From a virus (Duplodnaviria > Heunggongvirae > Uroviricota > Caudoviricetes), in IMG/VR virus record IMGVR_UViG_2698536355_000005: DNA of 5,804 nucleotides; one strand, given 5' to 3'. The notes under the pieces are model-generated. The model worked only from the letters and a program-made list of their open reading frames with translations, did not search any database and was not told where the DNA came from. Both the position numbers and the translations under genes were made by a program. Of the stretch, positions 3,449-3,726 are shown piece by piece. Each line of letters begins with the position of its first letter. Positions within the stretch are counted from its first letter, which is position 1.

Positions 3449-3490
3449 CGCCATGATTGCCACGGATGGCAACATATTAACGGCATAATA

Positions 3491-3535
3491 TTGACTTTTT
3501 GAATAACTTTGGGGAAACTTGACACCAATAATGGG
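3491..3535 (+). promoter_or_regulatory. PR'-like late promoter / qut-like region immediately downstream of Q
   Basis: TTGACT (3491-3496), 17-bp spacer, GAAACT (3514-3519), then TTGACACCAATAATGGG. Collinear with lambda PR' as I remember it (TTGACTTATTGAATAAAATTGGGTAAATTTGACTCAACGATGGG). The -10 is weaker than lambda's; a -10-like AATAAT at 3527-3532 sits where lambda has its pause-inducing element. Called by homology, not measured. Confidence 0.55.
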
Positions 3536-3659
3536 CATTTTTTACATGTCATTGATGAGCTCAATAACCTGCCGCCGAGTAGTTTTTATGCTCTGAATTG
3601 TATTTGTGTAGTAAACATGCTGACTGCAATGTAATAGAGTTTTTTTAGCCTGTAACCTC

Positions 3660-3689
3660 TTGACGGCATTGAATTGCTTTTGTTATGAG
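3660..3689 (+). promoter_or_regulatory. Candidate sigma70 promoter for the downstream membrane-protein gene
   Basis: TTGACG (3660-3665), 18-bp spacer, extended -10-like TGtTATGAG (3681-3689). Sequence-pattern only. Confidence 0.3.
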
Positions 3690-3726
3690 TTGTAAGCCAA
3701 TGTTACCATCTTGTATTGGGGTGGTT

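Follow-up and report, generated by a model that had tools for sequence, protein, structure and literature searches.

The stretch of DNA analysed here (5,804 nt of the Caudoviricetes record IMGVR_UViG_2698536355_000005, hereafter the window) carries a lambda-type late promoter, PR', and between this promoter and the membrane-protein gene that follows there is no credible intrinsic terminator. We consider it rather probable that the region is a joint of two modules. The left module would be the late-control unit of lambda, consisting of lambda Q, PR' with its Q-binding element and a sigma70 pause element, while the right module would be a mobile AT-rich cassette with its own promoter, a 238-aa membrane protein, a DUF3927/TciB-like protein and the small RNA gene pasD with its terminator. 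At the joint, the lambda 6S/tR' segment would have been replaced by a diverged, non-functional copy of a 434-type terminator. PR' would fire in the lysogen just as in lytic growth, and its transcripts would meet no efficient intrinsic terminator until that of pasD, ~1373 nt away, covering the membrane-protein gene, the tciB-like gene and pasD on the way. The pasD terminator would then take the role of tR', such that the esterase and lysis genes stay off until Q is made. The cassette is transcribed in lysogens from its own promoter anyway, and PR' would add a share, which is probably limited by a weakened -10 element (GAAACT) and a near-consensus pause element.

The ORF list and Pfam matches identify the window as the nin-to-late-control portion of a lambdoid prophage. 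Positions 1-104, which we take to be the left end of IS1 in reverse orientation, are an IS end present in many copies, with tens of thousands of matches in 5057 of 5426 E. coli genomes, unlike positions 105-1400, which match single prophage loci in the same genome set. A homing-endonuclease-like ORF with HNH_3 and AP2 domains (839-1405) lies just upstream of ninG and overlaps its start region; this ORF contains a 20-nt tandem duplication (857-897), and the AT-rich spacer upstream of it holds a perfect-looking hexanucleotide microsatellite, (TATTTC) x 8.8, at 592-644, which could be a slippage-prone tract. The genes ninG, ninH and that of the NinI phosphatase lie between the HNH/AP2 ORF and the Q antiterminator gene (2825-3448, + strand; Pfam Antiterm PF03589, E = 4e-57). 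The encoded Q is of the lambda type, with 205 of 207 amino acids identical to lambda Q (99%), and it stands immediately upstream of PR', the place of Q in a lambda late-control unit. At the far end of the window is the 5' part of a NanS-p-like sialate O-acetylesterase gene (4985-5804, + strand; Pfam DUF1737 and SASA), whose homologue is annotated as a SASA esterase in phages 434 and 2B8. A tRNA scan of the whole window returned none.

Alignment with lambda, mEpX1, Kapi1 and HK446 places the PR' core promoter at 3491-3519 on the + strand. The original prediction had recognised the -35 and spacer of the lambda late promoter within 3491-3535, and the alignment bears this out: the -35 TTGACT (3491-3496) is identical to that of lambda and agrees with the consensus at 5 of 6 positions, and the 17-nt spacer (3497-3513), which holds the Q-binding element, matches lambda at 14 of 17 positions, with two of the three other positions varying also in HK446 and Kapi1, phages that encode a lambda-like Q. 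The region therefore has a sigma70 promoter with a Q-binding element between its -35 and -10, as expected of a late-control unit, although the -10 has diverged to GAAACT (3514-3519) from the TAAATT of lambda, with loss of the consensus T at -12. The original prediction was silent both on this -10 and on the pause element that follows it, which is nearer to consensus than its lambda counterpart. Placed by lambda geometry, the predicted start is A3527 (or C3526), and a -10-like pause element, AATAAT followed by GGG, spans 3527-3535. The stretch 3520-3535 (TGAC...AATAAT-GGG) aligns with TGACTC-AACGAT-GGG of lambda; AATAAT matches TATAAT at 5 of 6 positions as compared with 3 of 6 for AACGAT, and a pause in the initial transcribed region is accordingly predicted from this element.

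Downstream of the pause element is a junction-specific segment (3536-3565, + strand) without similarity to lambda or 434. It includes a T6 run (3538-3543) at approximately +12 to +17 of the predicted PR' transcript, which is the site of the sigma70-dependent pause of RNA polymerase in lambda. All variants of the junction, even those of the diverged L094 lineage, keep a run of five or six Ts at this position, which the leaders of other lambda-type PR' sequences lack. A 17-mer scan of IMG/VR for the origin of the segment gave no source besides this junction, the remaining matches being unrelated coding sequence. Alternative promoter registers around 3519-3548, checked by eye, offered no acceptable -10.

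Two methods were applied to the leader in the search for a terminator. A pattern scan of 3449-3730 found none on either strand. The second scan took every U-rich tail and forced closure of the hairpin next to it; among hairpins of up to 45 nt in 3520-3740 the best reached -6.2 kcal/mol. The same procedure recovered lambda tR' (-24.3 kcal/mol, z -5.5 against shuffles), the phage 434 terminator (-12.5 kcal/mol, z -4.5) and the pasD terminator in the window itself (4872-4892; -13.5 kcal/mol, z -3.6). The strong intrinsic terminator that in lambda lies within ~200 nt of the start and gives a short constitutive RNA is thus missing, and the claim in the original prediction that no convincing hairpin with a U-tract precedes the membrane-protein gene stands; terminator prediction over 3536-3730, the check it proposed, returned no credible candidate. 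Of the T-runs it listed as stemless, those at 3583-3587 and 3640-3646 are placed correctly and the first lies at 3538-3543 rather than 3536-3541; the run at 3583-3587, moreover, is not a mere T-run but the tail of a terminator remnant that aligns with the 434 terminator, as described below.

It is conceivable that most PR' transcripts are nevertheless stopped in the leader by unconventional means, at the remnant with its U5, at a hairpin at 3590-3640 followed by U7, by release at U6 in the paused complex, or by Rho acting on ~170-200 nt of untranslated RNA. The leader does contain three U-runs, and it appears to be untranslated, as a short ORF that begins in AATAATG was rejected as a conserved leader peptide when a 1-nt indel between variants of the junction proved to disrupt its frame. 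The best remaining candidate is a long irregular hairpin on the + strand (3590-3640) that abuts the T7 run at 3640-3646 with a 6-bp closing stem, and the element as a whole (3590-3646) could stop a fraction of transcripts by weak termination. Its folding energy of -9.3 kcal/mol is, however, no better than that of shuffled sequence (z = -0.57; 51 of 200 shuffles equal or surpass it), and the equivalent stretch of 434 does not form the same hairpin. The remnant folds at only -1.5 kcal/mol. A Rho loading site was also considered and rejected: with 16% C and 20% G the leader is C-poor, unlike Rho loading sites, and therefore a poor place for Rho to load. Rfam gave no family match in 3449-3730 at E <= 1. 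Taken together, we regard termination of most transcripts in the leader as quite unlikely, and continue with the reading in which PR' transcripts pass through it.

What occupies the place of a terminator is a crippled remnant of the 434/CP-933K type (3566-3587, + strand), consisting of AACCTGCCGCCGAGTAG followed by T5. In phage 434, Sakai Sp3 and EDL933 CP-933K an intact and annotated terminator, AAACCCGCTGCCGAGTGGG followed by T7-8, lies between a Q82-type PR' and the cassette, and the AACCTGCCGCCGAGTAG of the window with its T5 aligns with it column for column; the remnant hairpin has -1.5 to -2.2 kcal/mol as compared with -12.5 kcal/mol for the intact form. Alignment with the lambda PR'-6S-tR' region, proposed originally as a way to see what was replaced, shows that similarity to lambda-type phages stops at about 3535 (matches end at query 229-236), and that the lambda 6S/tR' segment is absent with the remnant in its place. 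Positions 3300-4990 are 98% identical to phage 2B8, and from 3583 on the window is 98.9% identical to phage 434. In the 60 nt past the remnant the two arrangements, lambda-type and Q82-type, share ~85% identity, and they become nearly identical from about 3627. By this pattern of identity the junction appears to be a mosaic joint and not a product of recent decay.

The distribution of the junction is broad. The terminator-less lambda-type arrangement was found in 572 of 5426 complete E. coli genomes (~10%), with hosts that include O157:H7, O145:H28, O111:H8 and O26-like strains as well as EPEC E2348/69. The same junction, including GAAACT, is present in phage 2B8, which has been plaque-purified and amplified (PMC6969025); because this phage forms plaques, its PR'/Q pair supports lytic growth. 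Of the IMG/VR contigs that bear the cassette, ~70 belong to the lambda type of junction, in which the remnant is invariably present, ~43 belong to the Q82 type and retain the intact terminator, and 3 are recombinants within the leader. The remnant is common also to the diverged sub-lineage L094, and is therefore old and stable.

These observations bear on the suggestion that the missing terminator merely reflects decay in a dead prophage, without regulatory meaning. In its favor are the IS end at 1-104, the many host prophages that are defective, and the second EPEC E2348/69 prophage PP2 (L229), where the intact-type terminator ~60-85 nt after the Q82-type Q stop is damaged as well, GGG having become GG with a drop from -12.5 to -6.2 kcal/mol, a variant seen once among Q82-type loci in IMG/VR. 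An identical junction in a plaque-forming phage, its occurrence in 572 complete genomes spanning O157, O145, O111, O26-like and EPEC strains, and the shared remnant in the diverged sub-lineage all argue against decay, which we consider highly improbable.

A survey of 101 unique lambda-type PR' sequences, 86 without and 15 with the cassette, shows that the absence of a terminator is a property of the cassette class beyond chance. In all 86 cassette-free sequences a hairpin with Us behind it lies within ~190 nt of the start, usually at about +52 or +186, with an energy between -8.3 and -24.8 kcal/mol (-10 or stronger in nearly all of them); none of the 15 cassette-bearing sequences has such a strong proximal hairpin. 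The -10 is TAAATT in every one of the cassette-free promoters; in the cassette-bearing ones it is GAAACT in 12, TAAATT in 2 (L094 and L033) and TAAGTT in 1. Down-changes in the -10 were thus seen only where the terminator is missing, an association that is no more than suggestive, as few evolutionary events underlie it.

The cassette itself has the properties of a moron. Its GC content is 32-42%, lower than that of Q (~50%) and of the esterase gene (57%), and it is absent from lambda, HK97-like phages and Kapi1, i.e., it combines atypical base composition with presence and absence among relatives. The first gene (3727-4443, + strand; alternative upstream starts at 3685 and 3700) encodes the 238-aa membrane protein, with about four strongly hydrophobic segments, which matches PHROG 1521 (category: unknown function), is named 'STM1630 family protein' in newer PGAP records and has no match in Pfam, NCBIfam or PADLOC. 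The second (4529-4687, + strand) encodes the small DUF3927/TciB-like membrane protein (Pfam PF13064, E = 3e-14; PHROG 1470). In assigning EDL933 homologues, Z0955 was considered as the membrane-protein gene and discarded, being lpxR instead, and the small-gene supplements for Sakai held no entry for the tciB-like ORF or ECs0816.

The candidate promoter that the original prediction assigned to the membrane-protein gene is confirmed by published start sites. Ahead of the CP-933K copy of the gene, EDL933 Cappable-seq data list a + strand start at 899964 under all conditions (PMC10469882), which corresponds to G3696 of the window, 7 nt past an extended -10, TGtTATGAG, with TTGACG 18 nt upstream of the -10; the EDL933 promoter sequence equals that of the window except for one base (3706). 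The cassette thus has its own sigma70 promoter at 3660-3696 on the + strand (-35 TTGACG at 3660-3665, an 18-nt spacer, extended -10 at 3681-3689, start G3696), which the pattern scan had missed because its -10 lacks the final T. A second + strand start, 899803, is likewise found under all conditions with a signal comparable to that of 899964 (PMC10469882). It is the A seven bases past TATACT, that is, the start of the Q82-type PR', and a PR'-type promoter of this kind is therefore constitutively active in the EDL933 lysogen. Three further EDL933 starts (L251) were observed in this stretch: 899984, corresponding to T3716, which precedes the ATG at 3727 by 11 nt and appears in most conditions; a rare start at 899915, corresponding to A3647, right after the T7 run; and a rare antisense start on the minus strand at 899961, opposite the cassette's own promoter. 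The mapped start, together with expression while Q and the lysis genes are silent, makes this promoter active in the prophage state, as in morons. U-tail hairpin and pattern scans found no terminator directly after the membrane-protein ORF, and the downstream terminator typical of a moron is here provided solely by that of pasD (4873-4899).

The small RNA gene pasD (4728-4899, + strand) ends in a terminator with its stem at 4873-4891 and a U8 run at 4892-4899, which the pattern scan detected as well. The sequence 4728-4899 is identical at 170 of 172 positions to PasD2 of EPEC E2348/69, an abundant Hfq-bound sRNA validated by northern blot (PMC8550237), and in phage 2B8 pasD, which is related to STnc100, lies directly upstream of the esterase gene (2026 preprint). 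In agreement with this relation, Rfam gives a match to STnc100 in the window, although a sub-threshold one (41.3 bits against a gathering score of 47), and identification as pasD relies on the identity to PasD, the position directly upstream of the esterase and the terminal hairpin with its U-run. Upstream is a promoter-like sequence (4691-4720, + strand), with TTGACT at 4691-4696 and TAAAAA at 4715-4720 separated by 18 nt, that practically every locus of either junction class retains and that is correctly placed for the PasD 5' end estimated by RNA-seq; a pasD start site was sought in the EDL933 start-site supplements and was not found there. Related loci show three structural variants of the pasD RNA, some of which match STnc100 much better. 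In L007 (O157:H7 RV06; ~4800-5200) and in L094 and L062 another pasD/STnc100 variant is present and a DUF6645 gene replaces the SASA esterase, which indicates that the right-hand boundary of the cassette is mosaic too.

Several ORFs have been annotated over or antisense to pasD (4744-4902 on the + strand, and on the minus strand), namely a 'putative membrane protein' in 434, ECs_0817, Z0958 and E2348C_1013, with the overlapping annotations located at 3662-3850 in L001, 13267-13665 in L123 and 2501-2899 in L228. These ORFs are probably spurious, and their apparent expression (115 for Z0958 and 2064 for E2348C_1013) likely reflects pasD reads. HnrS, a multicopy prophage sRNA (PMC13502914), was also looked for and rejected, as its mazF-complementary 15-mer is absent from the window. 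A second hairpin (4898-4925, -11.2 kcal/mol) with a U-poor tail sits right after the pasD U-run, and may serve as a back-up or belong to the leader of the esterase gene.

The pasD terminator is the first strong terminator downstream of PR', ~1373 nt from A3527 to the end of the U-run, and the esterase gene (4985) is the first gene past it. In every full-length locus of both classes it is the next strong terminator, with variants that preserve base pairing. The original prediction missed this effective terminator, 1.37 kb downstream and belonging to pasD.

Published RNA-seq data for EDL933 and EPEC are in line with the expectation that the membrane-protein gene is expressed without Q in uninduced cells. 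In EDL933 grown in LB, values were 26 for Q, 100 for the membrane-protein gene and 4-8 for the lysis genes (PMC4048457). EPEC E2348/69 carries exactly this junction in its prophage PP4, where Q was at 6.0 under activating and 1.35 under non-activating conditions, holin at 5.4 and 1.2, and the membrane-protein gene at 147 and 90 (PMC8550237, table S2); the rest of PP4 is almost all silent (PMC8550237), and the PP2 copy of the gene, which belongs to the Q82 type with the weakened terminator (-6.2 kcal/mol), stood at 226 in the activating condition (PMC8550237), though with only 3 differences in 744 nt between the copies, reads are not confidently assignable to either. These data show Q-independent transcription of the membrane-protein gene in uninduced cells, and that the lysis genes are not reached. 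The mRNA level of the membrane-protein gene is modest relative to that of pasD (~10^4), as would hardly be expected of a strong unterminated PR'.

How much of this transcription comes from PR' is a separate matter. Arrangements with a terminator show expression of the gene that is no lower (EDL933, and PP2 at 226), so that its own promoter suffices for the expression data. It is hence possible that PR' is negligible in the lysogen, held back by the weak GAAACT -10 and a long-lived sigma70-dependent pause at AATAAT, with the cassette relying on its own promoter only and the missing terminator being a tolerated loss. The mapped own promoter, which in EDL933 is about as strong as the Q82-type PR', the similar or higher expression in terminator-bearing arrangements, the confinement of -10 down-changes to the terminator-less class and the modest mRNA level are all consistent with this. 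PR' may indeed be weak, given the lost T at -12 and the separate TAAGTT change in another member of the class. Against a negligible PR' stand the plaque-forming phage 2B8, which has the same PR', and the fact that Q acts after initiation and is no activator of it, so that the promoter must fire on its own and should do so in the lysogen. Furthermore, A-11 and T-7, the most critical bases of a -10, are kept, the -35 retains 5 of 6 consensus positions, and L094 and L033 of the same class still have TAAATT. Because the own promoter alone fully explains the expression data, a negligible PR' keeps substantial weight, although we think it the less probable reading; on the reading we favor, judged from promoter and leader sequence, the membrane-protein gene probably receives extra transcription from PR' in dormant prophages.

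A more ambitious interpretation, about which we are rather doubtful, takes the loss of tR' not for passive decay but for an alternative design of the late switch of lambda. The weak -10, the near-consensus pause element and the U6 run at the pause position would act together as a promoter-proximal throttle released by Q, and the terminator function would pass to the pasD terminator, 1.37 kb away.

Compared with known systems, the unit corresponds to lambda PR'-qut-6S RNA-tR' in its Q (99%), its -35, the position of the Q-binding element, the pause element with GGG and its place right after Q. It differs in that there is no tR', and a 6S-like short transcript is not expected; in GAAACT instead of TAAATT, AATAAT instead of AACGAT and a U6 run at the pause position; and in the distance to the first strong terminator, which is ~1373 nt as compared with 194 nt, with two ORFs and an sRNA gene in between. 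Phage 434 and CP-933K/Sp3 share the cassette (99% identity from about 3627, including its own promoter, the membrane protein, the tciB-like gene and pasD) and a homologous terminator position, whereas they have a Q and a PR' like those of phage 82, and their terminator, crippled here, is intact (-12.5 kcal/mol, U7-8), such that PR' transcripts should end ~65 nt from the start. The PR'-StxS-tR' unit of Stx phages likewise has a constitutive late promoter with a Q-independent product that functions in the lysogen, and a terminator separates that promoter from downstream cargo (Sy et al., 2020; PMC7547250). There, the promoter yields a short terminated RNA from which an sRNA is processed, with stx beyond tR', whereas here cargo precedes the first strong terminator and the sRNA gene pasD appears to have its own promoter. 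With lambdoid morons (bor and lom of lambda; those of HK97 and HK022) the cassette has in common an extra AT-rich block, its own promoter, a downstream terminator, patchy occurrence in relatives and expression in the repressed prophage; in contrast to classical morons it sits inside the interval from PR' to the terminator, where its own and the late promoter can both feed it. The unit thus has the features of a lambda late-control unit save the defining proximal terminator, and the cassette has those of a moron. A full-text literature search, of incomplete coverage, retrieved no description of a lambda-type PR' without tR' and with cargo before the first terminator.

In textbooks, the late switch of lambda exemplifies a constitutive promoter whose output is restrained by a terminator close by. 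The junction described here is a natural and common variant without that terminator; ~10% of the complete E. coli genomes carry it, among them O157:H7, O145, O111 and EPEC strains, as does a viable phage. Between its promoter and the first strong terminator lie the genes for a membrane protein, a TciB-like peptide and the abundant sRNA PasD. If the alternative design holds, a lysogenic-conversion cassette and an Hfq-dependent sRNA would lie inside the '6S' interval, receiving a low PR' feed in the lysogen and a strong one once Q appears. If PR' reads through, dormant prophages of major pathogens would have their cargo connected to the late promoter, and it would be the pasD terminator that keeps the lysis genes silent. 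The sister arrangement with its intact terminator offers a natural comparison for the trade-off between pausing, promoter strength and terminator distance.
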